Shown: in pieces, positions 1 to 29,685 of the stretch | Layout of the letters: each line of letters starts with the position of its first letter | Numbering within the stretch: the first letter of the stretch is position 1 | Origin: Planctomycetota bacterium | GTDB lineage: Bacteria; Planctomycetota; UBA1135; UBA2386 | DNA: 64,000 nt | Reading direction: 5' to 3' | NCBI GenBank assembly: GCA_044230075.1 | Contig: JBGARS010000016.1 | Location: 533 to 64,532, forward strand | Position numbers and translations under genes: made by a program | The notes under the pieces: generated by a model | Told to the model about the DNA's origin: nothing | Databases searched by the model: none | The model's input: the letters and a program-made list of their open reading frames with translations, nothing else

Positions 1-150
1 ACCCAACAGGTCCCCTTCACGATCCCGGGCTTCACGACCCCCGGCTTCCTGTTCTACTCGCAGGCGGCAGCGCTGATCTGCCCGGCGGCGCCGAACAACG
101 CCGGCATCATCCTCAGCAACGGTCTGCGTAGCTACTGCAACACGTTCTGA
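1..150 (+). CDS. 3' end of a probably secreted protein carrying the shared C-terminal domain (partial)
   Basis: Frame 1 reads TQQVPFTIPGFTTPGFLFYSQAAALICPAAPNNAGIILSNGLRSYCNTF* with stop at 148-150. The ...F.Q......SNG... ending resembles the C-termini at 23664, 25214 and 27430. Confidence 0.7.
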   Translation, partial: TQQVPFTIPGFTTPGFLFYSQAAALICPAAPNNAGIILSNGLRSYCNTF

Positions 151-161
151 CCGCGGGGGTC

Positions 162-1766: not shown

Positions 1767-2672
1767 TCACGGATACAGCGCCGTGACTGCGCTGGTATGA
1801 GCGAAGCCGTCGACCGCCATCGGGTCGAACACGCCCCACTGGAACGACAGCGGAAAGCCCTGCCAGATCGGGTCGTTCGGAATGAACAGCGTGTGGGTGG
1901 CGCCGCCGACGAACGGACTCGTGTGGGACTTGGTGACGACCGGCAGCAGGATCTCCGGCGTGACCCATACGTCGGCCCAACCGATCGATACGCCGCCTGG
2001 GATGGGCACGCCGAGCACGAGCACGGCGAGCACGTTGCGAGCCGCATCGTCGAGCCAGACGTCGATCGGACTCTGGACCGCTGGCCAGCCGGTGACGCCG
2101 ATCGTCGGCACGCCATACTGCCCCGGCTTGCCGGTGCCGTAGTTGGTGATCGTGCCGGCCGCGAACGGTGCGAACAGCCGGTACTTGCCGGGCACCATGC
2201 CCATCGCGTGCCAGGTGTTGCCGTCGGAGTAACGCGTCTCGATCAGCACGTTCGCCGGGTCGTTGTCGGCACTGACCGAGTGCTGCGGGAACATGCCCTG
2301 CACGCGCCACACCAGGAAGTAGTCCTGGCCCGCCTGCACGGGGGCCACCTGCGCGAACGTCGCGCCTTGCCAGCAGCGCGCGTGCGTCGTCGTCCAGTTG
2401 CCGGCCTGACCGACCAACATGTCCGGCAGGCCGGTCGCCGCATTGCGGGTCCGGATCTCCACCGAGTGCAGCGCCGGCGGCTGGTTGCCGGTGAACACCT
2501 GCGCCGCGGCCAGCGACGTGGTCGCCGATGCCGTGAAACGGAAGGCGATCACGCTGCTGGGCCAGCCGACGGCGTAGCTGCCGTAGGAGAGGTTGTCGTT
2601 CGCGGCGTCGAGAAGCTGTTGGGCAGGCAGGCAGCCAGCCGCGCACAGCACCAGTGGCAGGAGAGGGCGCAT
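1767..2672 (-). CDS. Secreted protein with beta-sandwich-like domain and shared C-terminal domain
   Basis: Signal peptide MRPLLPLVLCAAGCLPA|QQ; C-terminal region starts YGTGKPGQYGVP and ends FQWGVFDP...HTSAV. Confidence 0.75.
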   Translation of the reverse strand: MRPLLPLVLCAAGCLPAQQLLDAANDNLSYGSYAVGWPSSVIAFRFTASATTSLAAAQVFTGNQPPALHSVEIRTRNAATGLPDMLVGQAGNWTTTHARCWQGATFAQVAPVQAGQDYFLVWRVQGMFPQHSVSADNDPANVLIETRYSDGNTWHAMGMVPGKYRLFAPFAAGTITNYGTGKPGQYGVPTIGVTGWPAVQSPIDVWLDDAARNVLAVLVLGVPIPGGVSIGWADVWVTPEILLPVVTKSHTSPFVGGATHTLFIPNDPIWQGFPLSFQWGVFDPMAVDGFAHTSAVTALYP

Positions 2673-4498: not shown

Positions 4499-5815
4499 TC
4501 AGCGCCCGCCACGCAGCCGCAGCAGCGCCGCTTCCAGCACCGGATCCCGTTCGTCGAAGTCACCGGGTTTGGCCGCCACGTAGATGTGCGGCGTGATCCC
4601 CTCGCCTTCGAAGCAACTGCCGTCGGGGCGCAGCGCCTGCCAGCTCGGCAGCAGCACCGCGAGTCCCGGCAGCAGCGTGTGTGCCTGTGGGTTGCCGGAA
4701 CTGCCGTACGTCGTGGCGCCGACCAGCAGCGCGCGCGGCGACTGCTTCATCATCAACAGGAACGCCTCGCTGCTCGACATGTTCAGCGGCCCCGTCAGCA
4801 CGGCGACCTGGCCCTGGAACACATCCGGTGGCCCGTTGCCACGCAGACGCCGATCCTGCCGTTCGCCGAAGCCGTCGGCCGCCTTCGGATCGCACGAACG
4901 GTGCGCGGCGTAGACGACCTCGCCCTCGACGAAGAACCCCGCCAGCCGCTGCGCCAGCTGTTCGTCGCCGCCGGTGTTGCCGCGCAGGTCGAGCACCATG
5001 GCCTTGCAGGTCATCAGGCTGCGCAGCGCCTCGAGCAGGCGATCGAACTCGTCGCGCTGTTCGCGCGCAAACGTGCCGACGAACAGGTAGCCGATCTCGT
5101 CGTCGGTACGCGCCAGGAGGCCGACGCGGCCGATCTGCTGCAGCTTCGGCAACGCGCGCTGCAGCGCGCGTGCGTCGAAGTTCGCGACCACCTCGCGGCG
5201 CGCGGTCGGCAGCGTGGCGCCTTGCCACTGCACCGCGACGTGTACGTCCTGGGCGGTCGCCAGCAGCTCGCTGATGTGCAGCGCGAGCGAAGCGCCGCTG
5301 CGCGAGGCCTCCAGTCGTTCCCGGTGCGTGCGGTCGAGTTCGCTCCAGTCGATGCCGAGGCGATCGCGGTAGGCATACTGATCGTGCAGGGCGACGAACA
5401 GGCGGTCCACGGCGGCCCGCGCGGCGCCTTCGGCCAGTGCCGCGCCCTTGGTCGCGATGCGCCAGGGCGTCGCCGCCAGTCGTCGACCGCCCGCGCTGCG
5501 GAAGCCGGCTGACTCGGCGCAGGCGAGGTCCATCGCGTAGACGTGATCGGGCTCCAAGGTGGCGTCGAGCAGGAACGTGCGATCGTTCTCCCAGCTCGGC
5601 GTGCCGGCGTTCGGGAAGCTCGGGCCGCCGCCGCACAGGCCGTAGACTCCCGGATCCATCGCCTGATCGAACTGCACCAGCAGCTGTCGCACGATCGTGG
5701 CATCGACTTCCGCGGCGAGGTGGGGTGGGTCGAGTCGCACCACGGCTGGTGGTGCCTGCGCGACCGCGAACGAGGCGGCGAGGGCCACACTGACCACGGT
5801 CGGGAAGTGGTTCAT
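4499..5815 (-). CDS. Secreted S41-family peptidase with N-terminal Ig-like (Big_5/SbsA-like) domain
   Basis: Signal peptide ...SFAVA|QAP; DLRGNTGG, MSSSE (catalytic Ser), TYGSSGNP, FEGEGITP. ATG overlaps the tgpA stop at 5812-5815. Confidence 0.85.
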   Translation of the reverse strand: MNHFPTVVSVALAASFAVAQAPPAVVRLDPPHLAAEVDATIVRQLLVQFDQAMDPGVYGLCGGGPSFPNAGTPSWENDRTFLLDATLEPDHVYAMDLACAESAGFRSAGGRRLAATPWRIATKGAALAEGAARAAVDRLFVALHDQYAYRDRLGIDWSELDRTHRERLEASRSGASLALHISELLATAQDVHVAVQWQGATLPTARREVVANFDARALQRALPKLQQIGRVGLLARTDDEIGYLFVGTFAREQRDEFDRLLEALRSLMTCKAMVLDLRGNTGGDEQLAQRLAGFFVEGEVVYAAHRSCDPKAADGFGERQDRRLRGNGPPDVFQGQVAVLTGPLNMSSSEAFLLMMKQSPRALLVGATTYGSSGNPQAHTLLPGLAVLLPSWQALRPDGSCFEGEGITPHIYVAAKPGDFDERDPVLEAALLRLRGGR

Positions 5816-7776
5816 GTTCTCCGCGTTCCTTGGCCGGGTCGGGTGGCGACCGGGCCGTAGCGCAGGCGTTCGTGGTCGTGCGCGGCCTGCTGGAGGCTCG
5901 CGAGCGGGGCCGGATCGACGCTGGCCGCCTCTGCTCGGAGCAGCAGTTCGCGCGGCGTCTCGCCAGCCTGCAACGAGAGCCCGGCAGCACGGACCGCGCG
6001 TTCGAGGTCGGCGATCGCCGGCTCGTCCTGCCGCCGCCGCCGCCGACGGTAGGCGACCAGCACGCCGACCGCCAGGATCGCAAGCGTCGCGAACGGATTG
6101 GCCAGCGCCGCGCGGGCCAGTGCGCCGGGAAGTTCGACGACGCGCTGCAGCCACGCCGCCCGGCGGCTGCCGTTGAAGCCGACGACCTCGCTCCAGAGCC
6201 CCTCGAGCTGGCGCCAGCAGGCGGCCGACCACGAAGTCGCCTCCCCGCGCGTCGCCATGACGTCGGCCGGCGGCGTCGCGTCCAGGGTCAGCCAGCGGCC
6301 GTCCCGGGCGAGTGCTTCGACCCAGGCGTGCGCGTGCCGCGACCGCACCACCACGCTGGCACTCGCCGGATCCCACTCGTGGGCCAGGTAGCCGCCGACG
6401 ACCCGGCACGGCACGCCCTGCAGGCGCAGCAGCATCGCCAGCGCGGTGGCGAAGTACTCGCAGTGGCCGGCGCCGGCGCCGATCAGGAACTCGCCGAGAT
6501 TGCGGGCGAAGCCCGGCTCACCGGGCAACTGGTAGCGGCGGTGGTCGCGCAACCAGTCGCAGCTGGCGGTGGCGATCGTCGTTCTGTCGGCATCTGGCGG
6601 CAGCTGGCGCTGCACCTGCGCGGCGAGGTCGTGCAGCACGCGCGGCAGGTTCTGCGCCGGCAGGTTCGTCAGCTCTGCCAGCTGGCGGCGCGAGGGCGTC
6701 ACGCGTCCGGAATGCGCGGCGATCTCCACCACGTACTCGAGCGCGCGCGAAGGCGCGTCGTCGAGCCGATCGGCACGGATCGCGCCGCTCGCCTCGTCGT
6801 GCAGCAGCAGCCCCGGACCGTGCGTCAGCCGCAGCGCGCGCGCGGTGAGCGGGTGCGGCAGGCGCACGTCACCGGTCTCCGGCAGCTGCACGTGCACGAG
6901 GGCGACCGCTGGGCCGATGTCGCGCCGCCACCAACCATCGGCGGCACGGTCCCAGCCGACGTCGAGCGTCGGCCGATCGTCGCCGCGGGAAGTCGTCGGC
7001 GACCACTGCAGGCCGTCGAAGTCCGCGAAGGTGATCGACCGCCAGTGGCTCGGCACGTCGGTCTCGTGACCGCCAGCGGGGGACAGCCGCATCACGACCG
7101 CATCGCTGAGGTGCGTCGGCATCTCGTCGTCGATGCGGATCCGGTCGGCGACGCCGGACTCGGCACCCTGTTGCTGGGCGATCGCCTCGCCGAGCCAGCC
7201 CGGGCGCGCGAAGTCGCGCGGCAAGGTCACGAACAGCAGCGCCGTGACGGCACCGATCACGACCGAGTGCACGCACGCGTGCCGGACCACGCCACGCACT
7301 GGCGTTGCCTCGACCGGCGTGCCGCGGCGCACGAGCACGTTCACCTGCAGTGCCGCGATCAGCACGACCGCGTGCCCGACGAACAGCAGCGACCAGCCCA
7401 GATCCGGCGCGAAGAAGCTGGTGACGAACGCGACCAGCAGCGAGTTGAAGAACACCAGGTCCGGCCGCTGCCGCTCGCCGATGTTGTTCAGCAGGTGCAC
7501 CTGGCACAACACGGCCAGCACGAGGCCGTCTTCGAGCATGTGCAGCAGGCCGGTCGTCGTCGCGTGCCGCACCAGCAGCGCGAACACCAGCAGCACACCC
7601 ACGTTCCAGGTGACGCGGCAGGCGAGGTGCCGCTGCAGGCGCCGCAGCCACGGCGCCGCGATCGTCAGCAGCCACAGCGGCAGCAGGCCTTGGCCGCCGA
7701 CGATGCCGGTCGCCTGCACGAACGCGAGGTCGAGCAGCGTCAGCAGCAACAGGAACGGCAGCAGCCGGTCACGCAC
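5812..7776 (-). CDS. TgpA-like transglutaminase (DUF3488 membrane domain + transglutaminase core)
   Basis: N-terminal TM helices; GHCEYFATA (Cys), HAHAWVE (His), LDATP (Asp). Confidence 0.9.
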   Translation of the reverse strand: MRDRLLPFLLLLTLLDLAFVQATGIVGGQGLLPLWLLTIAAPWLRRLQRHLACRVTWNVGVLLVFALLVRHATTTGLLHMLEDGLVLAVLCQVHLLNNIGERQRPDLVFFNSLLVAFVTSFFAPDLGWSLLFVGHAVVLIAALQVNVLVRRGTPVEATPVRGVVRHACVHSVVIGAVTALLFVTLPRDFARPGWLGEAIAQQQGAESGVADRIRIDDEMPTHLSDAVVMRLSPAGGHETDVPSHWRSITFADFDGLQWSPTTSRGDDRPTLDVGWDRAADGWWRRDIGPAVALVHVQLPETGDVRLPHPLTARALRLTHGPGLLLHDEASGAIRADRLDDAPSRALEYVVEIAAHSGRVTPSRRQLAELTNLPAQNLPRVLHDLAAQVQRQLPPDADRTTIATASCDWLRDHRRYQLPGEPGFARNLGEFLIGAGAGHCEYFATALAMLLRLQGVPCRVVGGYLAHEWDPASASVVVRSRHAHAWVEALARDGRWLTLDATPPADVMATRGEATSWSAACWRQLEGLWSEVVGFNGSRRAAWLQRVVELPGALARAALANPFATLAILAVGVLVAYRRRRRRQDEPAIADLERAVRAAGLSLQAGETPRELLLRAEAASVDPAPLASLQQAAHDHERLRYGPVATRPGQGTRRT

Positions 7777-8698
7777 GGCTCGGCTCCCGGCCGCGTCGGC
7801 GCGGCAGTTCGGGGGCGGCTGCGTCGGCGGGCAGCACGTCGGCCTGCGCCAGCCAGCGCAACACAGCTCGCGGCGGCGGCTGGCTACCCGGCACGAGCAC
7901 GGTGTAGCCCTGGCTGACGAGCTGAACGCCGTGCAGCGAAGTGGCGGCAGCCAACACCGCGCCGGTCGCGACGGCGAGGGCCTGTTCGAGATCGGCGGGC
8001 GAACACCGGCGGTCGACGACGATGGTGCGCGCGTCGCCGACCTCACCGTCGCGTTCCTTGACGATGGGCACGCCGCGGCGCGCCGTCGCCTTCCAGTGCA
8101 CGTCGCGCACCGCGTCGCCGGTGCGGAACGGACGCAGGCCGCTGACCGTCGCCGGTTGTGCGCTGGCGCCGTCGTGCTGCCCCGCCGGGCGCCGCAACGC
8201 GCTCGCCGGCGGCGCGCTCGCCGGCAGCGGATGGGTGACGACCTCGAGCTGCAGCGGCCGCCGCACGGTCAGTTCGAACAGGCCGAACGGGAAACGCGAC
8301 GCGATGCGCAGCCGGTGGATGTCGTGCACGCCGCGCGGCAGGGCGGGCAGCGACGACGGCGGCGGAGCCCGACCGTCGAGCATGGCGAGCGGTGACAGCG
8401 GGATGCCGGGCCCAGCGTCTTCCAGCGTCAGCACGACGTCGAACACGCGCCGTGCGGCGGCGATGCCGAGGTGCACCGGCCGCGTCGTGTCGGCGGGACC
8501 TGGTGGCACGTCCAGGCCGAGCACGCGCACGGCGCGCAGGTTGCGGATGCCCGTGACGAGCCCGACGCCGCCGAGCACACAGCAGAACACGATCAGCAGG
8601 AAGAAGAGGTTGCTGTAGCTCGTGGCCAGGAACGCCAGCTCGAGCGTTGCCAGCAACAGCAGGCCCTTCAGGCCGAGTTCCGTTGGGCGGATGCGCAT
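7769..8698 (-). CDS. DUF58 domain protein
   Basis: SRFPFGLF and LRPFRTGDAVRDVHWKATARRG motifs. Confidence 0.9.
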   Translation of the reverse strand: MRIRPTELGLKGLLLLATLELAFLATSYSNLFFLLIVFCCVLGGVGLVTGIRNLRAVRVLGLDVPPGPADTTRPVHLGIAAARRVFDVVLTLEDAGPGIPLSPLAMLDGRAPPPSSLPALPRGVHDIHRLRIASRFPFGLFELTVRRPLQLEVVTHPLPASAPPASALRRPAGQHDGASAQPATVSGLRPFRTGDAVRDVHWKATARRGVPIVKERDGEVGDARTIVVDRRCSPADLEQALAVATGAVLAAATSLHGVQLVSQGYTVLVPGSQPPPRAVLRWLAQADVLPADAAAPELPRRRGREPSRA

Positions 8699-8708
8699 GA
8701 TGGCGCCG

Positions 8709-9665
8709 TCAGAGCGGCACCTCGGTCGAGCGCACGGCGTCCGCGACCAGCTCGACCGACGGCTGCGCGTCGCGCCGGAACACGCGGTGGGCGAGCGCTG
8801 GTCCTGCGAGTGCCTTCAGGTCGTCAGGCAGCACGTAGGTGCGTCCGTCGAACGCCGCCCGTGCCTTCGCCGCGCGCAGCCAGGCCAGCGCGGCGCGCGG
8901 GCTGGCGCCCAGTTGCACGTCGGGATGCAGACGCGTCGCCTGCACCACGCGGTAGACGTACTCGGCGACCGCCGGCCGCACCTGCACCTCGTCGACCGCC
9001 GCGCGCAGCAGCAGCAACTGTTCGCAGTCGACGACCGGCTGGATGTCGGCCAGGCGCGCTTCGCAGTCGCGGCCGCTGTAGAGCGCCAGCTCGAACTCCG
9101 CCGCCGGGTACTCGAGTTCGACGCGCACGAGGAAACGATCCAGCGCCGCCTCGGGCACCGGGAAGGTGCCGTGGAACTCGACCGGGTTGCGCGTCGCCAG
9201 CACCAGGAACGGCCGGCCGAGGTCCAGCGTGCGCCCGTCGATCGACACGCGGCCGCTCTCCATCGCCTCGAGCAGGCACGACAGCGTGCGCGGGCTGGTG
9301 CGGTTGATCTCGTCGGCCAGCACGACGTTGGCGAACAGGGGACCGCGCACGAACGTGAAGCGGCCGAGGTCGGCGCGCCACACGGCGCTGCCGGTCACGT
9401 CGCTCGGCATCACGTCGTTGGTGAACTGGATGCGGCGAAACTCGCCGGCGATGCTCTGCGCGATCGTGCGCGCCAGCAGGGTCTTGCCGATGCCGGGAAT
9501 GCCCTCCAGCAGCACGTGACCGCCGGCGATCAACGCGCACAGGATCGGTTCGACGGCAGTGGCCGGTACGGCGACGACCGCGGTGAGGTTGCGTTGCAGT
9601 TCGGCGCGCACGGTGCGCACGTCGACGGTGGGGCTGTTGGCGGGCAAGGTGCGGTCTCCGACCAC
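8709..9665 (-). CDS. moxR: MoxR-family AAA+ ATPase
   Basis: HVLLEGIPGIGKT, RIQFTNDVMPSD, LADEINRTSPRT, PEAALDRF, GASPRA. Confidence 0.93.
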   Translation of the reverse strand: MVGDRTLPANSPTVDVRTVRAELQRNLTAVVAVPATAVEPILCALIAGGHVLLEGIPGIGKTLLARTIAQSIAGEFRRIQFTNDVMPSDVTGSAVWRADLGRFTFVRGPLFANVVLADEINRTSPRTLSCLLEAMESGRVSIDGRTLDLGRPFLVLATRNPVEFHGTFPVPEAALDRFLVRVELEYPAAEFELALYSGRDCEARLADIQPVVDCEQLLLLRAAVDEVQVRPAVAEYVYRVVQATRLHPDVQLGASPRAALAWLRAAKARAAFDGRTYVLPDDLKALAGPALAHRVFRRDAQPSVELVADAVRSTEVPL

Positions 9666-11068: not shown

Positions 11069-13246
11069 TCAGACGATGCGCTCGATGACGTCGACGCGAA
11101 CGCGGATCGGCCCCGTCGGCGAAGGCATCTCGCCGAACTCACCGACTGCCTTGCCGAGCAGCCCCTGCGCCATCGGCGCCAGGTAGTTGATCGTGTGGTC
11201 GTCGGTGATGTCCCACGGACCGAGCACCCGGTAGGTGTGCTTGCGGCCGGAGGTTTCCTCGGTCAGCGTGATCTTCGTGCCGGGGGCGACGCGATCGTCG
11301 GGCACGTCCTGCTCTTCGATCAGCCGCACGCTGCGCAGCTGTTGGTCCATCGTCTGCGCGCGACCGGTGAGGTTGCGCTGCTCTTCCATCGCCGACTCCC
11401 ACTCGCTGTTCTCGCTGAGGTCGCCGAGTGAGGCTGCGGCACCGATGGCCTTGCTGTTGGCGGGGATCTTCTCCTCGACCAGGTCGCGGTAGTCGTCGCG
11501 CAGCCGCCGCAGACCCTCGCGCGTGGTGAAGATCTGGTCGCGTTCCCAGAACGGCACGTCGGGCTTGGCGTGGATGTCCGGGTAGTGGTCCGCGACGGTC
11601 CGGTCGATCATGTCGACGATCTCGAGCGGGAAGTCCTCGCCGGCGCGCACGCAGATGCCGACGTACTGCGTGAGGTCGTCGCGCGAGATGCCGTCGAGCG
11701 AGAGGTTCAGCAGACCGCGTTTGCCGGTCAGCAGGCTGGTCAGGCGCCCGAGCAGGCGGCTGTGCAGCTGGTTCTTCTTGCGGTCGGCGTTCAGCACGCG
11801 GCCGAGGTGCAGCAGCACGCGGCCGACGGCGACCGGGTTCGGCCGCAGCTCGGCGCCCTCGAAGACGCCGTCGCAGTACAGCTTGCCGAGCAGGTAGATC
11901 AGCATCGGGAAGCGGTTCGGGTAGGGCGCAACCCGATCCCACATCGGCAGGCACAGCATGCCGTTGCCGGTCGACGTCAGCTTGTCGACGATGTTCTCGA
12001 CCACCGAGTTGGGCCACTCGGTGAGCATGACCGCGCACTGGTCGGCCCAGTTGTCGCCGAGCGACTTCGGCAGCAGTTCGACCGCGTGCACGCGCGAAGC
12101 CTGCGTCGCCAGCCGGTCGATCGCGACCGGGACCAGCGTGCCGTCTTCCTTCAACAGCAGCTGCTTCAGCTCGTCCGCGGCTGCGATCGAGGCGCGGCGA
12201 CCGTTCTCTTCGAGGAACAGGATGCCGTCGAGGATGTGCGCGTGCGTGGCCTTCTTCTCCTCGATCGCCTGCTCGACGACCTTGGTCGCGAGTCCGAGGA
12301 TCTGCGTGCGGACCTCCTCGTCCTGGCCGCGCGCGAGGTAGTCGCGCAGCACGCCGATGCGCTGGCCGAGGTCGTTCTGGTGCCGCAGCGTGTTGGTGGC
12401 CTCTTCGACCAGGCCGACCGGCTTGTCGCGCAGCAGGAACACGGGGCGCGTCGTCGAACCCTCGACCTTCAGCCACGGATCCTTCGCCGCGGCTGCCTTG
12501 GCGCGCTTCCAGAACGCTGGCCAGGCCTTCTCTTCGATGATCGTTCCGCACAGCTCGGTCTTCACCTGGGCACTCGTGATGGTGCCGCGGTAGAGCGTCG
12601 CGGTGCGCCGGATCAGGCCGCTCGGGTCCTGCGCCGCTTCGACCCGCAGCGCGTCCATGTGCTGCAGCTTCATCGCCCGCAGGTCTTCGGCGTCGAGCGC
12701 CTTGAAGCGCGTGAGCAGCGTGTCGAGCGGGAAGTGCTCACGCCGGCCCGTGGCGAAGCGCACCGTCGTGTCCTCGGTCTCGGCCGAGAAGCCCTCGACC
12801 TGGCCTTCGCCCCAGCCGGCGCCGTGGTAGACGACGTGGCCCTTGGTGTAGCGGCGCAGGCGGTCGAACTCGAGGATCGCCTGCACGCTTGCCGACTGCA
12901 GGCCGGCGCGCGTCTTCAGCACCGAGAACCACGGCTCCTCGCCGTAGCTCTTCTCGATCAGTCCGGCGACCGTGATCGTCAGCGCTTCGTTGTGCGCGCT
13001 GCGGCGCATGACGCGGAAGCCGAGCTCCATCGCGGCGTCGGTGTGACCCTTCGCCGCGAGCGCATCGATCATCGTGCTGGCAAGGCCCAGGGCGCGGCTC
13101 GCCATGTCCTGGTCGCACAGAAGGTCGATCGCCTTGGCGTAGAGACCGGTGTCCTCGGCCCGGGGGGCCTTCGCAGCCTGCCCCCAAGCGGTGTCGAGGT
13201 CGTCGAATTGGAGGGAACGGGCGAGCTGGACGAGGTCGTTCGTCAC
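11069..13246 (-). CDS. greA: Extended GreA/GreB transcription elongation factor (~725 aa)
   Basis: C-terminal GDLSENSEW, VAPGTKI, INYLAPMAQGLLGK; about 570-aa helical N-terminal extension; GTG start at 13246 chosen. Confidence 0.88.
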   Translation of the reverse strand: MTNDLVQLARSLQFDDLDTAWGQAAKAPRAEDTGLYAKAIDLLCDQDMASRALGLASTMIDALAAKGHTDAAMELGFRVMRRSAHNEALTITVAGLIEKSYGEEPWFSVLKTRAGLQSASVQAILEFDRLRRYTKGHVVYHGAGWGEGQVEGFSAETEDTTVRFATGRREHFPLDTLLTRFKALDAEDLRAMKLQHMDALRVEAAQDPSGLIRRTATLYRGTITSAQVKTELCGTIIEEKAWPAFWKRAKAAAAKDPWLKVEGSTTRPVFLLRDKPVGLVEEATNTLRHQNDLGQRIGVLRDYLARGQDEEVRTQILGLATKVVEQAIEEKKATHAHILDGILFLEENGRRASIAAADELKQLLLKEDGTLVPVAIDRLATQASRVHAVELLPKSLGDNWADQCAVMLTEWPNSVVENIVDKLTSTGNGMLCLPMWDRVAPYPNRFPMLIYLLGKLYCDGVFEGAELRPNPVAVGRVLLHLGRVLNADRKKNQLHSRLLGRLTSLLTGKRGLLNLSLDGISRDDLTQYVGICVRAGEDFPLEIVDMIDRTVADHYPDIHAKPDVPFWERDQIFTTREGLRRLRDDYRDLVEEKIPANSKAIGAAASLGDLSENSEWESAMEEQRNLTGRAQTMDQQLRSVRLIEEQDVPDDRVAPGTKITLTEETSGRKHTYRVLGPWDITDDHTINYLAPMAQGLLGKAVGEFGEMPSPTGPIRVRVDVIERIV

Positions 13247-16369: not shown

Positions 16370-16372
16370 CCC

Positions 16373-19184: not shown

Positions 19185-19973
19185 TCAATCCAGCTCGAGC
19201 CCGCGCTCTTCCTCTTCGGTGATGCCTTCGCCGAACGAGCTGCCGAGGTAGACGCGGCGCACCTGTTCGTCGTTGACGATCGTCTGCGCGTCGCCGTCGG
19301 CGATCACCTTGCCCTGGTTGATGATGTAGGCGCGGTGGGTGATGCGCAGCGTGGCGATCACGTTGTGCTCGGTGATCAGGATCGCGATGCCGGTACGCGC
19401 CAGCGCGGCGAGGATCTGCTGGATCTCCTCGACCGTGATCGGATCGACGCCGGCGAATGGTTCGTCGAGCAGCAGCAGCGCCGGCTCGGTGGCCAGCGCG
19501 CGGGCGATCTCCAGCCGCCGCTTCTCGCCACCCGACATCGTCTCCGCGATCGAGCCGGCGACGTGCGTCAGCTGCAGGTCGTGCAGCAGCGCGCGGGCGC
19601 GTTCCTCGCGTGGCTTCTTGCGCATGCCGCGCGCCTCGAGCACGCAGCGGATGTTGTCGAGCGCCGACATCTTCTTGAACACCGACTCCTGCTGCGCGAG
19701 GTAGCCGAGGCCCCGGCGCGCGCGGCGGTACATCGGCTGCTTCGTCACGTCCTGGCCACCGAGCATCACCGTGCCGGCGTTGGGTGTGACCATGCCGACG
19801 ACCATGCGGAAGGTGGTCGTCTTGCCGGCGCCGTTCGGGCCGAGCAGGCCGACGATCTCGCCCTCGTTGACGCAGATGCTGACCTGGTCGACGACGCGGC
19901 GGCCGCCGTAGGACTTGACCAGCGCGTTGGTGCGCAGGATCTCGTCGCCGGGAGCGGCGTCGCGATCGCTCAT
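19185..19973 (-). CDS. lptB: LPS export ABC transporter ATP-binding protein
   Basis: LVKSYGGRRVV, GLLGPNGAGKTTTF, GLGYLAQ, SGGEKRRLEIARAL, LDEPFAGVDPI, ITEHNV. Confidence 0.92.
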   Translation of the reverse strand: MSDRDAAPGDEILRTNALVKSYGGRRVVDQVSICVNEGEIVGLLGPNGAGKTTTFRMVVGMVTPNAGTVMLGGQDVTKQPMYRRARRGLGYLAQQESVFKKMSALDNIRCVLEARGMRKKPREERARALLHDLQLTHVAGSIAETMSGGEKRRLEIARALATEPALLLLDEPFAGVDPITVEEIQQILAALARTGIAILITEHNVIATLRITHRAYIINQGKVIADGDAQTIVNDEQVRRVYLGSSFGEGITEEEERGLELD

Positions 19974-21631
19974 CGCACGAACCCGAAGCGGTCCGGCCAG
20001 TTGCTGCCGAGCAGCCAGGACAGTGGCCGCGAGGGGTAGAACACGAGGATCGCGCGGCCCTGGATGTCGTCGCGCGGCACGAACGGCACCTTGGTCTCGG
20101 GCGGCGTCCAATCCCCGTCCTGCGAGCCGGGCTTGACGAAGCTGATGCGCTGGCCCCAGTCCGGGCCGACCTCGGCCTGGAGGCGCAGCAGTTCGCCGAA
20201 CTCGTCGATCATGACGATGCAGTGCCGGCTCGGGATGCCGATCGGCGTCTCGTCGCGGTCGGGCTGCCGATCCAGTGGCATCGCGCGCTTGTTGCCGCGC
20301 ACGATGCGCGCGCCCGGCGTGTCCGGCGGCACGACCTGGTCGTCGGCGTCGACGCCGATCGTGACCGCGGTCCAGTCGCGCGAGTCGATCGACTGCAGCG
20401 TGTTGTCGCCCATCATGAAGTAGTGCCCGTCGGGCACCTCGATGACCTCGGGCGAGCCGGCGCGCGTGTAGTGCTGGTCGCGATCGAGCCGCAGGTCGTC
20501 GAGGCGGACCTTGCCCTTGCCCTTCATCGCGATCTGCGGCACGACGCAGTGTTCGGGCTTGGCGGCGCCGGGCACGCCGAGTTCGCAACCTTCGCGGCAG
20601 GCCCACTGCGCCGTGTCGAAGCGCTGCACCTCGGCGCCGTCGCGCCAGGCGATCAACTGGTCGTCGACGTGGGCGAAACCGAGTTCGGCGCCGCTGTCCG
20701 GCGCCACGTCACAGGCGAACTCGGATGACTCACCGAGCACCTGCGTATCCTTGGCGCGCACCTGCAGGCGCCCCTTGCCGGCGCGCACGACCAGCGCGAA
20801 GGTCAGCTTGTCCTTGCCCGGGCGGCGCACCTCGATCTCGAGCGCCAGTTCGTCCAACTGCTGCTCCGGCACCACGCGCACCTGCAGCCGCGCGTCGGGC
20901 ACGATCTCCTGGGGCCGTTCGCTCGGGTTCTTGTCGCGGATCTGGCGGGCCGTCGCCTCCGGGTAGCCGTCCCAGACGCGGTCGACGAAGCCGCCGTCGT
21001 CCTCGTCGCGGAAGAACAGGCGCGCGGTGCCGTCGAGCGCGACCGCGAAGCCGGCGTCGTCCTCGCTGAACGCGCGTGACGGCGAACCCGCGAACGAGTT
21101 GCCGAGCGCCCTGCTCTCGGCACGCACGATCCGTCGCGCGGGATAGACGTTCTTCCACATCACCGCCTGCACGTCGTCGGGCTTGCGCAGGATGGTGTAG
21201 CTGCGCTCGCCGCCCTGGTCGGCGACCTGGTAGACGTTGCCACCGGCGATGTGCAGGTGATCGTTCGGCATGCCGACCATGCGCTTGACGTAGAGCTGGT
21301 TCTTCTGCAGCGGGTACTGGAACACCGTGATGTCCCAGCGCTTCGGCTCGCGGATCGTCGGCAGGAACTTGTCGACCAGGATGCGATCGAACACCTGCGC
21401 CTCGCTGCTGCCCATCAGCGTCGGCTGCATCGACGAGGTCGGGATCTGGTAGGCCTCGATGCAGAACCACTTCAGCAGCACGGCGGCGAGGATCGCGACG
21501 CCGAATGCCTCGAGGTTGGTGCGGATCGGCCCCATCGTCGGCGCCTTCTTCTGCTTGCCGCCGGTGGCGGCGACGGCGACTGCTGCCTCCGCCACCGCGA
21601 GGCTCACCGCTTCGCTGTCTGGTCCTGCCAT
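19970..21631 (-). CDS. lepB: Signal peptidase I, enlarged (553 aa)
   Basis: IPTSSMQPTL (Ser), YVKRMVG (Lys), YFMMGDNT..S.DSRDW, IQGRA; large insertion between the catalytic boxes. Confidence 0.9.
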   Translation of the reverse strand: MAGPDSEAVSLAVAEAAVAVAATGGKQKKAPTMGPIRTNLEAFGVAILAAVLLKWFCIEAYQIPTSSMQPTLMGSSEAQVFDRILVDKFLPTIREPKRWDITVFQYPLQKNQLYVKRMVGMPNDHLHIAGGNVYQVADQGGERSYTILRKPDDVQAVMWKNVYPARRIVRAESRALGNSFAGSPSRAFSEDDAGFAVALDGTARLFFRDEDDGGFVDRVWDGYPEATARQIRDKNPSERPQEIVPDARLQVRVVPEQQLDELALEIEVRRPGKDKLTFALVVRAGKGRLQVRAKDTQVLGESSEFACDVAPDSGAELGFAHVDDQLIAWRDGAEVQRFDTAQWACREGCELGVPGAAKPEHCVVPQIAMKGKGKVRLDDLRLDRDQHYTRAGSPEVIEVPDGHYFMMGDNTLQSIDSRDWTAVTIGVDADDQVVPPDTPGARIVRGNKRAMPLDRQPDRDETPIGIPSRHCIVMIDEFGELLRLQAEVGPDWGQRISFVKPGSQDGDWTPPETKVPFVPRDDIQGRAILVFYPSRPLSWLLGSNWPDRFGFVR

Positions 21632-21634
21632 GCG

Positions 21635-23446
<1,812 letters not shown>

Positions 23447-23663
23447 GTCAGGTGGCGGCGGGGAAGCGGCAGTGTCGGCGGCGGTCGCGTCCGGTGCCAG
23501 CCGGAACGGCGGGCCTGGACCACGAGGGCGTAGCAGGATAGCGAGTGGGGCAGCCCGGAGCAGGGGCGAGGTGGGTGGTTTTGACGGCTGCCGCGCGGCG
23601 TCGCGCACGGCTGTGCCGCGGCGGCAGCGCCCGCGAGCCGGCGACTGGCGGCGCGCCGGTCGA

Positions 23664-25214
23664 TCAGAAGCTGCCGGCGGTCAGCAGCAGCGCGTTCGTC
23701 GCGGTGATCGCGACCCAGCCGCCGAGAGCGTCGATCTCGATAGGCACCATCTGATGGTGGAAGCTCACGCCGACCAGCGGCGGCGTGCCGGGAAGGAACA
23801 GTGTCGACTGCGCCATGCCCGTCGAGGTCGAGAGTAGTTGGACGATGTCGGGGGCGACCAGTACGTCACAGCCGGCTACGCCCTCGGCGAACAGTGAGGA
23901 CAGCGGCGCGCTGCCTTGCGGGATCGCAGTCACGCTGGTCAGCGCGACGACGAGCGCGATCGTCGGCAGGCCGCTGCCCGTCGCGCGAAACGTCGTGTCG
24001 ACCCACGGCAGCGTCGCCGCCGCCAACGTGTTGTCGCCGCCGCTGCCGGGGCAGCCGAAGCCACCGACCGTGGCGGTGGCCGGACATGTGGTCGTCAGCC
24101 GAGCGAGTTCACAGCTGGTGGTCGCGGCGTAGTTGCCGCTCCCGACCAGGTCGCCGTTCGGCAGCACCGTCAGCGCGCTGACGGTGAACTGCCAGCCGGT
24201 CCCGAGCGCACTCCACGTGCCGGTGCCGGCGTTCCAGCGGGCGATGCTCATGGCCGGCACTCCGCCGGCGCTCGTGAACGTGCCGGCGACGGCGAGGTCG
24301 CCGCCGGCCAGCGTGGTCAGCGCGCTGACGCTGGCGGCCAGCGGAAAGCCCTGTTCGACGCCTAGCCCCAGCGGTGCCCAGGTCGAGCCGCTCCATCGCG
24401 CGATGCGGCGCGCGGTGGCGCCACCTGCGGTCGTGAACGTGCCACCGACGACGATGTCGCCGTTCGCGAGGCTGGCCAGTGCGTTGGCCTGGGCGAGGGT
24501 GCCGGCCGGAAAGACGCCGAGGCCGGTGCCGAGCGGCGCCCACGTCGCGCCGTTCCAGCTCGCGATGTGGTTCATCGTGACGCTGCCGGAGTTCGTGAAG
24601 CTGCCGGCCACGATCACCTCGCCGGTCGATCGCGCCGTGATCGCCCGGACCCAGCCATAGGTGTTGATGCCGCCGCCGAGCGGGCTCCACGAGCTGCCGT
24701 CCCAGCGCGCGACGTTGGCGGCCAGAAAGCCGCCTGCCTGGCTGAAGTGGCCACCGGCGATCAGGTCGCCGTTCGGCAGCACGTGCAGCGCCAACACTTC
24801 TCCGTTCATGCCGACACTCATCGGCGCCCACGCGGAACCGTCCCAGCGCGCGACATGGTTGGACCGCAGGCCGCCGGCGTGTTCGAAGTAGCCGCCGGCG
24901 ACGACGTCGCCATTCGGCAGCACCGCGAGCGCGGCGACGATGTCGTCCATGCCGCTGCCCATCGGGGTCCAGTTCGCGCCGTCCCAGCGGGCGACGTACG
25001 CGGCGGCGACGCCACCGAACGTGGTGAAGGTGCCGCCGGCCACGATGTCGCCGTTCGGCAGCGCGGCGAGTACCAATGGTGCCGAGCCTGGGCACTGTGG
25101 CCACTCGGACCATTGCGTCGCGCACTGGGCATGCACGTCGGCGGCGAGCGACAACACGGCGGCCAGCAGCGGGACGGACGAGCGACGGATGGACGGGATC
25201 ATGGGCGAGATCAT
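23664..25214 (-). CDS. Secreted beta-propeller-like repeat protein (W..G.G.N..V.AL..LPNGD.VAGG.F repeats) with shared C-terminal domain
   Basis: Signal peptide ...ADVHA|QC; about seven ~48-aa repeats; C-terminal region starts GFGCPGSGG. TGATG overlap with the upstream stop. Confidence 0.85.
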   Translation of the reverse strand: MISPMIPSIRRSSVPLLAAVLSLAADVHAQCATQWSEWPQCPGSAPLVLAALPNGDIVAGGTFTTFGGVAAAYVARWDGANWTPMGSGMDDIVAALAVLPNGDVVAGGYFEHAGGLRSNHVARWDGSAWAPMSVGMNGEVLALHVLPNGDLIAGGHFSQAGGFLAANVARWDGSSWSPLGGGINTYGWVRAITARSTGEVIVAGSFTNSGSVTMNHIASWNGATWAPLGTGLGVFPAGTLAQANALASLANGDIVVGGTFTTAGGATARRIARWSGSTWAPLGLGVEQGFPLAASVSALTTLAGGDLAVAGTFTSAGGVPAMSIARWNAGTGTWSALGTGWQFTVSALTVLPNGDLVGSGNYAATTSCELARLTTTCPATATVGGFGCPGSGGDNTLAAATLPWVDTTFRATGSGLPTIALVVALTSVTAIPQGSAPLSSLFAEGVAGCDVLVAPDIVQLLSTSTGMAQSTLFLPGTPPLVGVSFHHQMVPIEIDALGGWVAITATNALLLTAGSF

Positions 25215-27433
25215 CAGCGCACGCCGATCGTGCCGGTTAGCAGGTTGCCAGTGGCGATGCGCGGCTGCGCGAAGTCCCAGCTGAAACCCTGCAGGAACAG
25301 CCGGTCGCCGACGAAGCCAGGTTCTTCGGGCAGGTCGAGCGACACGGTCGCGGCGCCGCCGCCGGTCGCCTGCATGTAGAGCGGAACGATCGGCTGGGTC
25401 CGCAGCGCGCAGTCCGGCGAGCCGAGCACGTCGAGCAACAACGGCAACGGCACCCCGTCCCATTGCTGGTCGTCGAAACCGACCCAGGCGATCGGCAGCA
25501 CGAAGAACGTGTCCGGCAGGTTGGTCAACTCGAGGCGCGTCACCGTGCCGATCGCCAGCGGGTCGAGCGCCGTCAGCGTCAGCGACCCGTTGCCGCTGTT
25601 ACAGCCCGGACCTGTGCTCGTCCAGCTGCCGAGCGTCGTGTCGCGCAGCCGCCACATCTCACCGCGCGCGACCGAGCCGCCGAACAGCACCACCTCGCGC
25701 CGCACGGGGTCGTAGGCGGCGGTGGCGTCCGATCCGGCGTCGGGGTGGTGCGCGGTGGACAGCAGCGTCCAGTCGAGGCCGTCCCACAGCCACGTGTCGT
25801 GCAGCTGCGTTCCATTGGTGCCGCCGTAGACGATCGTGCGCTGCAGATGGCTGTCGTAGACCTGCACGTGGCCCGATCGCGCCGGCGGCGACGTCATGGG
25901 TGTGATCGGCAGCCATTGCACGCCGTCGAATTCCCACGTATCGCCGAACGTCGCGCCGACGCCGTTCGTGCCGCCGAACAGCACCACGCGGTCGCGCGCC
26001 GCGTCGTAGCTCATGCCCGCGTCCCGGCGCGGCGCCGGTCCGGTCGCCGGGGTCAGCTCCGACCACGTCAGGCCGTTCCAAGCCCAGAGATCCGCGACCG
26101 CCGGCTGCAGGGCCTGACCGCCGAAGATCAGCATCCTGGCGCGCAGGCGGTCGTAGACAGCCGAGTGATTGCGGCGCCCCTGCGGCGCGAACGAAGGCGT
26201 CGCGTAGTTCCAGGTGCCGTTGCCGTTCCACTCCAGGACGTAGCTCGCGTACTGCGATTCGCCGCCGAGCAGCACGGTGACCGCGCGGCTCTCGTCGTAC
26301 ACCATCGTGTGGCCGGCGCGGCCGGTGCCGCCACTGCCGCTGCTGCCGAGGAACCACTGGCGGTCCGCCAGCTCCCATGTCTCGTAGAGGTCCGAGTTGG
26401 CGCGTCCGCCGTAAAGCACCATGCGCTGCCGTGCAACGTCGTAGGCCATCGCGGCGTTGGCCCGACCCATCGGCGGCCCCAGCGCGACCAGCTTCCAGGC
26501 CATGGCCTCGAGTTCCCATGTGTTCGTGAGCTGCCGGGTCGCCGAGAACGACAGGACGTCGAGCGCGACGACGCGTTGGCGTGCGACGTCGTAGACGCGC
26601 AGCTGCGAAGCGAGCGGCGTGATCGGCGTGCCGACCAGCGTCCAGCCGTTGCCTGCCCACGCGTAGACCGTCGCCTCCTCGTTGAACCCGACCCGGGGGT
26701 GCGGCAACAGGACACGCTGCGAGCCGGCGTCGTAGATCGGCTGTCCCGACGCGCCGGCCGGCAGACCGCTGTTGTCGCGGCTCTGCCAGGAGATGCCGTC
26801 CCACGCGCGCAGGCCCGTGCCGTTCGAGCTGAGCAGCTCGCCGCGGGCTTCGTCGTAGACGAGCCGACCGAACGACGATGGCTCGGACCCCGGTACCGAG
26901 AGAGTCCACGTCGCCCCGTCGAACTCCCACATCGTCACCGAGGAGCCGCCACTGGCGGACACGGAGCCTCCGATCAGGACGACACGATCGCGCCCGGGGT
27001 CGTAGGCCATGGCGTGACCTGCCGTCGGCGGCGGCGACGCCGTCGGCGCGAGCTGGGTCCAGCCGTTTGCGTCGAACGCCCAGGTGTCGTTGCGCAGACC
27101 CGAGGCATCGTTGCCGCCGAACAGCACCAACCGTTGCCGCATCGAATCGTAGGCTGTCGCGTGGCTGCTGCGCGGCGACGGAGATACGTCGAGGTCGAGG
27201 CGGCGCCATCCACCGTCGTAGAGCCAGGTGTCGCCGTATGGTTCCTGTTGGCTGCCGCCGAACAGCACCGTCGTCGCCATCGCCGCATCGTACGTGAACG
27301 TGGCTCCCGTTCGCCCGGGGGGCGATTCATCGAGCTGCCAGTCGATATCGGCGAACGACTGCGCTGACAGTGCGCCTGCGAACATCACGAACGCGGCGAG
27401 GCACAGTGCGGACAGGTTGGAGTTCGTCATCAC
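25214..27433 (-). CDS. Secreted kelch-like repeat protein with shared C-terminal domain
   Basis: Signal peptide ...ALSA|QS; repeats of PP.R..HAMAYD..R.RVVLFGG...DTW.FDG..W; C-terminal region starts GPGCNSGNG. Confidence 0.87.
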   Translation of the reverse strand: MMTNSNLSALCLAAFVMFAGALSAQSFADIDWQLDESPPGRTGATFTYDAAMATTVLFGGSQQEPYGDTWLYDGGWRRLDLDVSPSPRSSHATAYDSMRQRLVLFGGNDASGLRNDTWAFDANGWTQLAPTASPPPTAGHAMAYDPGRDRVVLIGGSVSASGGSSVTMWEFDGATWTLSVPGSEPSSFGRLVYDEARGELLSSNGTGLRAWDGISWQSRDNSGLPAGASGQPIYDAGSQRVLLPHPRVGFNEEATVYAWAGNGWTLVGTPITPLASQLRVYDVARQRVVALDVLSFSATRQLTNTWELEAMAWKLVALGPPMGRANAAMAYDVARQRMVLYGGRANSDLYETWELADRQWFLGSSGSGGTGRAGHTMVYDESRAVTVLLGGESQYASYVLEWNGNGTWNYATPSFAPQGRRNHSAVYDRLRARMLIFGGQALQPAVADLWAWNGLTWSELTPATGPAPRRDAGMSYDAARDRVVLFGGTNGVGATFGDTWEFDGVQWLPITPMTSPPARSGHVQVYDSHLQRTIVYGGTNGTQLHDTWLWDGLDWTLLSTAHHPDAGSDATAAYDPVRREVVLFGGSVARGEMWRLRDTTLGSWTSTGPGCNSGNGSLTLTALDPLAIGTVTRLELTNLPDTFFVLPIAWVGFDDQQWDGVPLPLLLDVLGSPDCALRTQPIVPLYMQATGGGAATVSLDLPEEPGFVGDRLFLQGFSWDFAQPRIATGNLLTGTIGVR

Positions 27434-29685
27434 CGGGCTCCGAATGTCAGCGTGACACCGTTGCTCGTGGTCAGCTCACCTGTCAGCGGCTCGAACACGA
27501 AGCCCTGGCAGTGGATTGCCGTGCCGAGGAACGAAGGCTCGTAAGGGATCGCGATGTCGGCGATCGCCCCGCCGTGTCCGTCGTTGACGGCCGGCAGCGG
27601 CGCATCGAGCGAGATCAGGACCGAACGGCCTGGCCAGCCGAGCCAGCCGAGGTCGACCGTCGGCTGCAATCGGGCCGCGCCGAACCACAGGCCGGGCAGT
27701 GGCAGGCCCGGTAACGGACCGTAGGCGAGACGGCAGGTCTCGCCGAGCCACGGTTGCGCGCCGGTGCCGTGCAGCACCAGCGGACCGAGCGGGCTGACCG
27801 ATGCCTCGCCGAACGACTCGAGGTCGGCCACGAATGGCGTGCGCAGCAACCACTCGGTGGCGTTCAGCGCCGGACTGCCGACGAATCCGGGCAGCGTGCC
27901 GCCCAGCAGGTGGATGCCGTCCGGAGCGCCGACGAGCACGGGCTGGTTCGCCTGCGGCGTCGTGATCACGGCGATCTGCGTCCACGCGATTCCATCCCAT
28001 TGCCACACCTGCTGTGGCTGGTTGTACACGTAGAGATGCGCGACGACGGCCTGCCGCGCGAGGTCGTAGGCCATCGAAACCACTGTGCTCCCCGGCAGCG
28101 CGCCGCCCGAGAACACCTGCCAGTTCTGACCATCGAACTCCCAGGTGTCGTTCGTGGCGCCCCCGGACTGCTGTCCACCGAGCAGCACGATGCGGTCTCG
28201 CCGAGCATCGTATGCCATGCCCGGGGCCGCGCGCGGATGCGGCCGGAAGGTCGGGTGCAGTTCGGTCCAGGCGGTTCCGTCCCATGCCCACATGTCGTCG
28301 AGCTTCGAAGACGGCGACGACGCGGCGACGCCACCGAACATCACGACCCGCTCGCGCTGTCGGTCGTAGACGACGCCGACATCGTGACGCCCCGTGGGAC
28401 CGGCCGCGGTGATCTTCTGCCATTGGCTGCCATTCGCGCGCCACAGCTCGAACACGCTGTCGGCGCCGCCGACCAGCAACACGGCGTCACGCGCTTCGTC
28501 GTAGACGAGCCGGTTGCCGGACGACGTCGACGGATGTTGCCCGGGCAGCGTGAACGAGGGCTTCGGGATGCGCAGATCCCAACGCCCCTCTTCGCGCACC
28601 CAGAGGTCGGTCAGTGAGCCGTTCAAGCCGCCGAACACGAACGTGCGATCGTGCACGGTGTCGGTTGCGGCCGTATGGCCGTACCGCGCACCGGGTGGGG
28701 CCCAACTGCGCCGTTGCCACTGCACGCCGTCCCACTCCCACACGCTGGAGTCCAGCGACGTCCCGGGTCGGCTGGCACCCACGAACACGAGGCGAGCACG
28801 CGCCGTGTCGAACACGACGATCGGCTGAAAGGAATACGGCCCGTCCGCGGTCAATGGCTGCCACGAGAAATCGCTCGCCTGCCACGCGTAGACGGTCGGA
28901 GGCGCAGCGGAGCCGAAGCTCTGCCCCGCCACCAAGAGCAGCCGTTGCTGGGCCGCGTCGAATGCCAGCCGGTATCCCGACAACGACGAGAACGACGGGC
29001 CGACTTGCTGGGTCCAGCTCGTGCCGTTCCAGCGCCACAAGCCGCCGTTGCTGCCAGGACCACGGAACAGCGCCGTCGTCGCCGTGCTCGGGTCGTAGAC
29101 CATTGCCAGTGGCGTCACCCACTGCGGCCAGTTCGGTCCCTGGGTCGGCACCTGTGCCCAGTCTGTACCGTCGAATTCCCAAACCTGCCCGTAGCTGCCG
29201 CCGCTGGTGCCACCCCACAGCATGACGCGATCGCGCGCCGCGTCGTACACCATGGCCGAGTCGAGCAGTGATCCCGGCGCGTGCGCGGTGACGATCTCGG
29301 TCCAGTCGGCGCCGTCCCACGCCCAGGTGTCGAAGGTCGTGTGGGCCTGCGACGAGGGCGGCGGGTTCGGCGTCTCCCCGCCGAACAGCACGACCCGCTG
29401 TCGCAAGGAGTCGTAGGCCATCACATGACGGCGGCGCGCGCTCGGTCGGTGCGCGGGCGACAGCTCCGTCCACGTGGATCCGTCCCAGACCCAGCAGTCG
29501 TCGCGCGGCACACCGTCGTCACCCCCGAACAGGATCGTGTATCCATGCGCCTGGTCGTAGACCGCGTCGCTCTGACTGCGACTGGTCAGATCGTGACGCT
29601 GACTCCATTGCGCCTGCGCAGCGATGCTCGCGCACGCCACGAACTGCAGAAAGGCAGTGATTCCGACTCTCCACAGCGGATTCAT
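27430..29685 (-). CDS. Secreted kelch-like repeat protein with shared C-terminal domain
   Basis: Signal peptide ...AAQA|QW; same repeat type; ends HCQGFVFEP...TSNGVTLTFGAR. ATGA overlap with the downstream gene. Confidence 0.87.
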   Translation of the reverse strand: MNPLWRVGITAFLQFVACASIAAQAQWSQRHDLTSRSQSDAVYDQAHGYTILFGGDDGVPRDDCWVWDGSTWTELSPAHRPSARRRHVMAYDSLRQRVVLFGGETPNPPPSSQAHTTFDTWAWDGADWTEIVTAHAPGSLLDSAMVYDAARDRVMLWGGTSGGSYGQVWEFDGTDWAQVPTQGPNWPQWVTPLAMVYDPSTATTALFRGPGSNGGLWRWNGTSWTQQVGPSFSSLSGYRLAFDAAQQRLLLVAGQSFGSAAPPTVYAWQASDFSWQPLTADGPYSFQPIVVFDTARARLVFVGASRPGTSLDSSVWEWDGVQWQRRSWAPPGARYGHTAATDTVHDRTFVFGGLNGSLTDLWVREEGRWDLRIPKPSFTLPGQHPSTSSGNRLVYDEARDAVLLVGGADSVFELWRANGSQWQKITAAGPTGRHDVGVVYDRQRERVVMFGGVAASSPSSKLDDMWAWDGTAWTELHPTFRPHPRAAPGMAYDARRDRIVLLGGQQSGGATNDTWEFDGQNWQVFSGGALPGSTVVSMAYDLARQAVVAHLYVYNQPQQVWQWDGIAWTQIAVITTPQANQPVLVGAPDGIHLLGGTLPGFVGSPALNATEWLLRTPFVADLESFGEASVSPLGPLVLHGTGAQPWLGETCRLAYGPLPGLPLPGLWFGAARLQPTVDLGWLGWPGRSVLISLDAPLPAVNDGHGGAIADIAIPYEPSFLGTAIHCQGFVFEPLTGELTTSNGVTLTFGAR

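Follow-up and report, generated by a model that had tools for sequence, protein, structure and literature searches.

Similar tails on five proteins of a planctomycete contig are part of a very large and so far uncatalogued family of predicted terminal beta-sandwich domains

Five open reading frames (ORFs) of a planctomycete contig encode proteins that differ in their N-terminal parts and resemble one another in their C-terminal tails, and the question raised by this locus is what a tail shared in this way might do. The ORFs lie in a 64,000-nucleotide stretch, referred to here as the window, of contig JBGARS010000016.1 (GenBank assembly GCA_044230075.1, Planctomycetota bacterium). An original prediction, made from the DNA alone, took the tails for a lineage-wide C-terminal domain that may act like the C-terminal domain (CTD) of the type IX secretion system (T9SS) or as a surface anchor, for an export route not yet described. 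The results reported here identify the tails as members of a very large, uncatalogued family of terminal domains of about 125 residues, predicted to fold as beta-sandwiches, on Sec-exported proteins of a subset of Planctomycetota. The undescribed export route is conjecture.

All five ORFs were present where the original prediction had placed them, and the similarity of their tails was evident from searches of 42,388 ORFs with a profile whose members all came from other contigs (leave-window-out profile). Scores of the five proteins were 112, 65, 63, 58 and 43 bits (E = 6e-32 to 2e-10), whereas 1000 composition-preserving shuffles of the tails reached 11.5 bits at most, and the resemblance is therefore real. 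Identity of the window tails to the first of them was 15-29%, and the motifs picked out in the original prediction map to profile positions G1-x-G3-C4, G96, F/L99, Q102, D/E107 and S/T117-N118. The tail of the 301-residue protein is divergent, with Lys instead of Cys4 and without the terminal Gly, while that of the 751-residue protein is without both consensus Cys. The ORF cut by the start of the window, which begins 467 bases upstream of it, encodes a divergent member (42.7 bits, E = 1.6e-10 with the same profile) that retains the Gln, the Ser-Asn pair and both Cys. Clear signal peptides were noted in four of the five proteins, and none was detected in the product of the cut ORF, either by our heuristic or by eye. 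The most plausible start of the propeller gene is the ATG at 25214 (MISPMIPS...) as opposed to an upstream ATG at 25463. Linkers between cargo and domain are short in the propeller protein and in the two Kelch proteins.

A profile started from the four complete tails and iterated on six-frame ORFs of the 5.3-Mb assembly converged at 169-172 ORFs, so that the number of carriers, at about 170, was anything but small. The true family count exceeds 170, because the threshold missed the divergent end (QAVALFDP...LSNGLLSSIYAQ) of an ORF on contig C171; the same contig contains a dense island of about 12 tail-domain genes (Table 1). The domain was always present as a single copy per ORF, with no tandem copies among 169 matches, and ended five residues or fewer from the stop codon in 148 of the 169; about 160 secreted proteins of the genome carry it at a chain end. 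Signal peptides and cleavage sites were judged by a heuristic of our own rather than by a trained predictor, and strong members with a 5' end not cut by a contig edge (144 ORFs) were regarded as assessable. By this measure, 131 of the 144 (approximately 91%) had a signal-peptide-like N-terminus, and several others showed one by eye. As the original prediction implied, the carriers are thus mostly non-cytoplasmic.

Signal peptides of the tail-domain proteins ended in a small-x-small pattern followed by Gln in 122 of 131 cases. Outside the family, approximately every second protein in a loosely compiled set with signal peptides also had Gln at +1, compared with a background Gln frequency of 3.8%. 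A 'Q-rule' of this type is typical of Bacteroidetes (PMC5837995, PMC10653852), and its occurrence in the same genome as the tail domain hints at convergent envelope biology. Plant-type glutaminyl cyclase (PF05096) was absent from this genome and its family, so that any glutaminyl cyclase here would be of another type. PF05096 was rejected as a link between Gln+1 and the domain since, although 14 of its 24 carriers in a sample of the phylum were domain-positive, the association was confounded by phylogeny.

Within the family, mean pairwise identity was 26% over a domain of approximately 125 residues (125-135), and a small subfamily carries an extension of 35-47 residues beyond it. Against this low overall identity, Gln102 was found in 146 of 146 aligned copies and Ser or Thr at position 117, mostly followed by Asn, in 141 of 143, while Gly1 and Gly125 each reached about 95% in the profile. 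In all but three of 93 cases the chain stopped one or two residues after Gly125, most often at Phe, Leu, Arg, Trp or Tyr. The residues Cys4 and Cys62 were both present in 95 copies, both missing from 29 and present singly in 23; this co-occurrence points to a likely Cys4-Cys62 disulfide and therefore to folding outside the cytoplasm.

An AlphaFold2 model of the propeller protein's tail, obtained with an alignment of 58 diverse copies from this genome, had a predicted local distance difference test score (pLDDT) of 97.7 and a predicted template modelling score (pTM) of 0.90. The tail is thus confidently predicted to form a compact beta-sandwich, with eight strands and one short helix. From the strand register of this model, Gln102 and Ser/Thr117 would stand opposite each other over the last hairpin. 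A Thr-Gln ester cross-link was considered for this invariant pair and set aside, since Ser is commoner than Thr at position 117 and no conserved His or acid lies alongside. A model of the full-length propeller protein gave pLDDT 85.9 and pTM 0.78, with a disordered signal peptide. Foldseek comparison with the PDB yielded only generic immunoglobulin (Ig)-like sandwiches (TRAP subunits, antibody V domains, NIS1 and neocarzinostatin) and no specific neighbour, none of the 50 best matches exceeding a TM-score of 0.46 or reaching E <= 0.001, and a profile search of PDB sequences returned nothing credible (best E-value 0.019). Searches of the four complete window proteins against Pfam-A (E <= 0.1) and NCBIfam (E <= 1) left the tail without a model in either collection, in agreement with the premise that it is not a known Pfam domain with a function other than sorting. 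No paper on the domain was found in a literature search, and all homologues that bear a name are entered as 'hypothetical protein [Planctomycetes bacterium]'. The sequence family is new, and the sandwich fold is generic.

The regions N-terminal to the domain fell into about 50 unrelated BLAST clusters, of which the biggest were delta-60/DUF5122 propellers (31), Kelch proteins (17) and RCC1 proteins (10). Further cargo recognised by Pfam included FG-GAP, lamin-tail (LTD), PPC, sulfatase, two S8 subtilases, a BD-FAE esterase with Calx-beta, a beta-lactamase-family hydrolase, C-type lectin, LamG, PD40, CCP_MauG (di-haem cytochrome c peroxidase) and GSDH (glucose/sorbosone dehydrogenase). Enzymes of the CCP_MauG and GSDH types are usually periplasmic, so that nothing in the data obliges every carrier to pass the outer membrane. 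In at least five proteins of the genome the domain directly follows the signal peptide; in four of them it precedes a Kelch propeller (two paralogues), an alpha/beta-hydrolase or a SASA esterase, and in the fifth a C-terminal part without a Pfam match. Several other proteins, in this genome and in metagenomes, consist of a signal peptide and the domain alone, the metagenomic ones on contigs too short for genomic context. The domain thus behaves as a module of chain ends that strongly, though not invariably, favours the C-terminus, and its N-terminal and stand-alone copies are better fitted by an anchoring or docking handle than by a strictly C-terminal export signal.

The RpoB sequence places the genome in Planctomycetota, far from the cultured classes (68% identity to an uncultured planctomycete metagenome-assembled genome (MAG) and 63% to Zavarzinella) and among many uncultured relatives with 80-97% identity; the nearest long contig (88%) is from a metagenome assembly. 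The clade is possibly the 'Saltatorellus' lineage, since a GC content of 70% fits, without thereby establishing membership. Within the same order, the domain was found in 40 of 41 genomes, mostly in at least 105 copies and usually in about 100 or more. A 10-Mb relative gave 810 first-look candidates and a 2.2-Mb relative retains 38 copies, while one relative of 2.9 Mb has none. Across an even sample of the phylum, 59 of 301 Planctomycetota were positive and belonged to a limited set of families. Among 45 named genomes, the two positive ones were the two nearest uncultured MAGs, and the domain was absent both from seven Planctomycetota of other lineages (Zavarzinella, Candidatus Anammoxibacter, Aureliella and MAGs of Phycisphaerae, Sedimentisphaerales, Planctomycetaceae and Pirellulaceae) and from 36 genomes of other phyla. 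It was likewise absent from 201 genomes of Verrucomicrobiota. In a search of 1.84 billion representative public proteins (clusters at 50% identity), 31,438 matched at E <= 0.001 and 14,060 at E <= 1e-10, and the domain was C-terminal in all but one of the best 150 matches. The genome count and the relatives together bear out the proposal of a lineage-wide terminal domain on secreted proteins.

What the domain does is, in our tentative view (probability roughly 0.42), to serve as a docking handle, shared by many exported proteins and holding them at one component of the envelope. This reading is favoured by the few invariant residues in an otherwise freely drifting fold, the single copy per protein, the tolerance of either chain end and of stand-alone copies, the periplasm-type cargo and the lack of dedicated known machinery, and is supported by the approximately 50 unrelated cargo clusters and by retention of the domain in 40 of 41 genomes of the order. 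As read from the sequences, precursors would pass through the inner membrane via Sec, with a cut by signal peptidase I that would leave Gln at +1. The domain would fold outside the cytoplasm, usually with the Cys4-Cys62 disulfide, and Gly1, Gln102, Ser/Thr117-Asn118, Gly125 and the fixed end of one or two residues would together engage a single shared envelope component, candidates for which are a surface or periplasmic glycan such as lipopolysaccharide (LPS) and a receptor protein. About 160 different cargo proteins would thereby be held at the envelope, and the same contact might conceivably also route cargo over the outer membrane.

The dockerins provide an analogy for such an arrangement. 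A dockerin is a small module found at a chain end, as a rule the C-terminal one and now and then the N-terminal one; it is carried by dozens to hundreds of the secreted proteins of one organism and docks non-covalently to a shared partner (the cohesins). By analogy, the tail domain is likewise small, terminal, mostly C-terminal and present on many secreted proteins of one organism. It differs in its predicted all-beta fold, as opposed to the Ca-binding EF-hand-like helices of dockerins, and in that no cohesin-like partner was identified; type I dockerin (PF00404) was not among the Pfam matches of the four complete window proteins.

Several points weigh against a docking handle. Neither a partner nor an export route was identified, and the C-terminal bias and fixed end of one or two residues are also expected of an export signal; in T9SS tails, a C-terminal motif is functionally required (PMC11285876). 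On the predicted structure, Gln102, Ser/Thr117 and Gly may form either an exposed patch or a buried clasp, and if buried would say nothing of a partner. Similarly, the pTM of 0.78 for the full-length propeller model would allow a domain packed on its cargo instead of hanging free. The signal peptide calls, moreover, rest on a heuristic.

An export signal for an outer-membrane translocon, perhaps a secretin system, is the alternative that survives best, and in our judgement it is possible though unlikely. The domain, once folded, would then be recognised in the periplasm and its cargo carried to the surface by the translocon, as a non-homologous analogue of the T9SS CTD, with cleavage or covalent attachment optional. 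Its extreme C-terminal position in 148 of 169 matches, one copy each and with one or two residues after the last conserved Gly, is what such a signal would have, and the C-terminal bias and fixed chain end are explained better by an export signal than by a docking handle. The cargo, including propeller adhesins, subtilases, sulfatases, esterases and lectins, is like that of the Bacteroidota T9SS. As with the type II secretion system (T2SS) and T9SS, such cargo would already have folded and formed its disulfides by the time it crosses. The genome contains seven secretin genes, and 38 copies of the domain are kept even in the 2.2-Mb relative. In contrast, N-terminal and stand-alone copies are explained worse than by a docking handle, typically periplasmic enzymes occur among the cargo, and no conserved machinery was noted nearby. 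The absence of SprA from 41 genomes and of C25 peptidases from this genome and genus, described next, also counts against this alternative.

The tail domain resembles T9SS CTDs in being a predicted beta-sandwich that stands, in one copy per chain, mostly at the very C-terminal end of many unrelated Sec-exported proteins, in its low overall identity with few conserved motifs that include the chain end, and in its similar classes of cargo. Gln at +1 of the host's signal peptides is a further likeness to the Bacteroidota, the hosts of T9SS (PMC5837995). T9SS CTDs are sandwiches of about 70-100 residues with seven strands arranged 3+4 (PMC11285876), whereas the tail domain has 125-135 residues, eight predicted strands and a short helix, occurs also N-terminally or alone, and is usually, from its Cys pattern, disulfide-bonded. 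No homology to T9SS tails was evident from profile searches. TIGR04183 (type A tails, Por_Secre_tail) had no match in this genome or in genome G013 but found 22 tails in a Flavobacterium control, its Pfam counterpart PF18962 and TIGR04131 (type B) had none on the four complete window proteins in the Pfam and NCBIfam searches, and hhalign of the family alignment against 12 Flavobacterium T9SS tails gave a probability of 0.05%. No entry described as a T9SS protein was among the 50 best Foldseek matches in the PDB. SprA/Sov (TIGR04189), which scored 2790 bits in the Flavobacterium control, was absent from this genome and 40 relatives, i.e., from all 41 genomes. C25/PorU-type peptidase (PF01364), searched without a positive control genome, was absent from this genome and genus, in which the domain reaches about 80-105 or more copies, and was found in only 18 of 41 relatives. 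The original comparison with a T9SS-type tail is accordingly not borne out.

The original prediction had proposed a search for co-occurring outer-membrane machinery, and none of the other known systems searched for tracked the domain. Secretin-domain genes number seven in this genome (on contigs C105, C88, C107, C95, C111 and others) and 3-9 in all 41 relatives, and were uninformative as a discriminating conduit since they are equally present in the relative without the domain, a point against an export signal that nevertheless leaves a secretin route neither supported nor excluded. Analysis of the neighbourhoods of about 150 domain genes yielded no recurrent candidate machinery. The sole neighbourhood signal was an extracytoplasmic function (ECF)-type sigma factor family, four of whose seven members adjoin tail-domain genes, so that some carriers may be under regulated expression.

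A lectin- or adhesin-like module for targets outside the cell (particles, polysaccharides or other cells), which would confer a shared affinity in the manner of a carbohydrate-binding module (CBM), is doubtful. The predicted beta-sandwich is of CBM or Ig size, the domain is found at either chain end or alone, many of the cargo domains are themselves binding modules, and dedicated machinery was not found. Unlike most CBMs, however, the domain is never in tandem and never internal between domains, no known CBM or lectin was matched structurally (best TM-score 0.46), and a common target is implausible for cargo enzymes with substrates as unrelated as those of the peroxidase, the sugar dehydrogenase and the beta-lactamase-family hydrolase.

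Slightly less probable still is a reading in which the domain marks cargo for an undiscovered sorting and attachment system of this deep-branching, high-GC clade. Folded, disulfide-bonded cargo would be recognised via the invariant Gln, Ser/Thr and Gly cluster near the end of the chain, brought to the surface and fastened to it by machinery that is related to neither T9SS nor exosortase nor sortase. A covalent bond formed through the invariant Gln might even serve for attachment, and, if real, the system would organise 3-4% of the proteome. The PEP-CTERM signal is similar to the tail domain in that it too marks the C-termini of many secreted proteins and varies between lineages, and it is common in Planctomycetota, but it consists of a short motif, a transmembrane helix and a basic tail as opposed to a soluble fold of 125 residues; no terminal hydrophobic helix was present in the window tails. 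The genome has an exosortase gene and about three other ORFs with classical VPEP-TM-Arg-rich tails, compared with approximately 160 beta-sandwich tails. A complementary distribution of the domain and exosortase/PEP-CTERM was considered and rejected, since the genome itself and its family have exosortase and no association was seen over 301 genomes: exosortase (PF09721) was found in 132 of the 301 Planctomycetota and in about 27 of the 59 domain-positive ones (counted by hand), which equals the overall rate. The domain is thus a homologue of neither T9SS CTDs, PEP-CTERM nor dockerins.

A purely structural role without addressing function, i.e., a stabilising cap, an oligomerisation unit or a protection against proteases, is improbable since, although the pTM of 0.78 would allow for a domain set rigidly against the propeller, the linkers from cargo to domain are short and the Gln and Ser/Thr that probably face each other across the hairpin could be purely structural, one such domain would have to serve about 50 unrelated folds and also occur alone, and a lineage-restricted presence at about 100 or more copies per genome would be unusual for a generic stabiliser.

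Irrespective of which of these roles applies, the domain is abundant (31,438 public clusters and approximately 160 proteins of this 5.3-Mb genome) with no database entry, structure or paper found for it. With a Pfam-style model, 'hypothetical' tails could be annotated by the tens of thousands and the extracytoplasmic proteins of the clade recognised as such. Should the domain prove to be a docking or sorting handle, it would define how the cell surface is built in a whole, poorly known clade of Planctomycetota, and would be a second, independent folded terminal domain, beside the T9SS C-terminal domains, in use as a common address. Such a handle would potentially be of practical use for surface display.

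Table 1. Positions of tail-domain genes and other features in the window and, where a C number precedes the position, on contigs of the assembly. A slash marks the predicted signal peptide cleavage site; bits are from the leave-window-out profile.
Feature	Position	Strand	Remarks
End of partial tail-domain ORF	1..150	+	last 49 residues and stop of 205-codon ORF C77:65-679
Exported 301-residue protein gene	1767..2672	-	signal peptide MRPLL...CLPA/QQ; weak DUF4082-like domain (Pfam E = 0.007); tail domain
Tail domain of 301-residue protein	1770..2141	-	residues ~178-301; 58 bits
Exported 516-residue delta-60/DUF5122 beta-propeller protein gene	23664..25214	-	signal peptide end ...DVHA/QC; tail domain
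Tail domain of propeller protein	23667..24071	-	residues 382-516; 112 bits; sequence used for modelling
Exported 738-residue Kelch-repeat protein gene	25214..27430	-	signal peptide end ...ALSA/QS; tail domain
Tail domain of first Kelch protein	25217..25618	-	last ~134 residues; 65 bits
Exported 751-residue Kelch-repeat protein gene	27430..29685	-	signal peptide end ...AAQA/QW; tail domain
Tail domain of second Kelch protein	27433..27819	-	last ~129 residues; 63 bits
Window signal peptides with Gln+1	2622-2672, 25128-25214, 27362-27430, 29611-29685	-	small-x-small/Gln pattern
lepA	21635-23608	-	Pfam GTP_EFTU/LepA_C
Signal peptidase I gene	19970-21631	-	unusually long, 553 residues; Pfam Peptidase_S26
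TgpA-like transglutaminase membrane protein and MoxR genes	5812-9665	-	TgpA_N, Transglut_core, DUF4129
ORF with GreA/GreB domains	11069-13324	-	751 codons
Two T2SSE/PilT-family ATPase genes	15035-17452	+
ORF with divergent tail missed by profile threshold	C171:8420-10534
Island of tail-domain genes	C171:1-57000		about 12 genes
ECF-type sigma factor genes by tail-domain genes	C115:35986-36603, C127:68239-68895, C137:21385-22146, C24:3661-5109		family named by eye
Exosortase gene	C98:8636-9349
ORFs with classical PEP-CTERM tails	C5:133-477, C112:36351-36962, C151:26939-28069

The propeller gene and the two Kelch genes are joined by TGATG stop/start overlaps, one at each end of the middle gene, and are therefore probably co-translated. 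Directly downstream on the same strand lie lepA and the long signal peptidase I gene.

Elsewhere in the window, the gene for a TgpA-like transglutaminase membrane protein adjoins that of a MoxR AAA ATPase, a widespread pairing from which no link is drawn to the invariant Gln of the tail domain. The GreA/GreB domains noted in another ORF occupy its last ~150 residues, and coding-like GC at third codon positions over the whole of this ORF suggests a GreA with an N-terminal extension of approximately 590 residues. On the opposite strand from both, the two T2SSE/PilT-family ATPase genes stand side by side.

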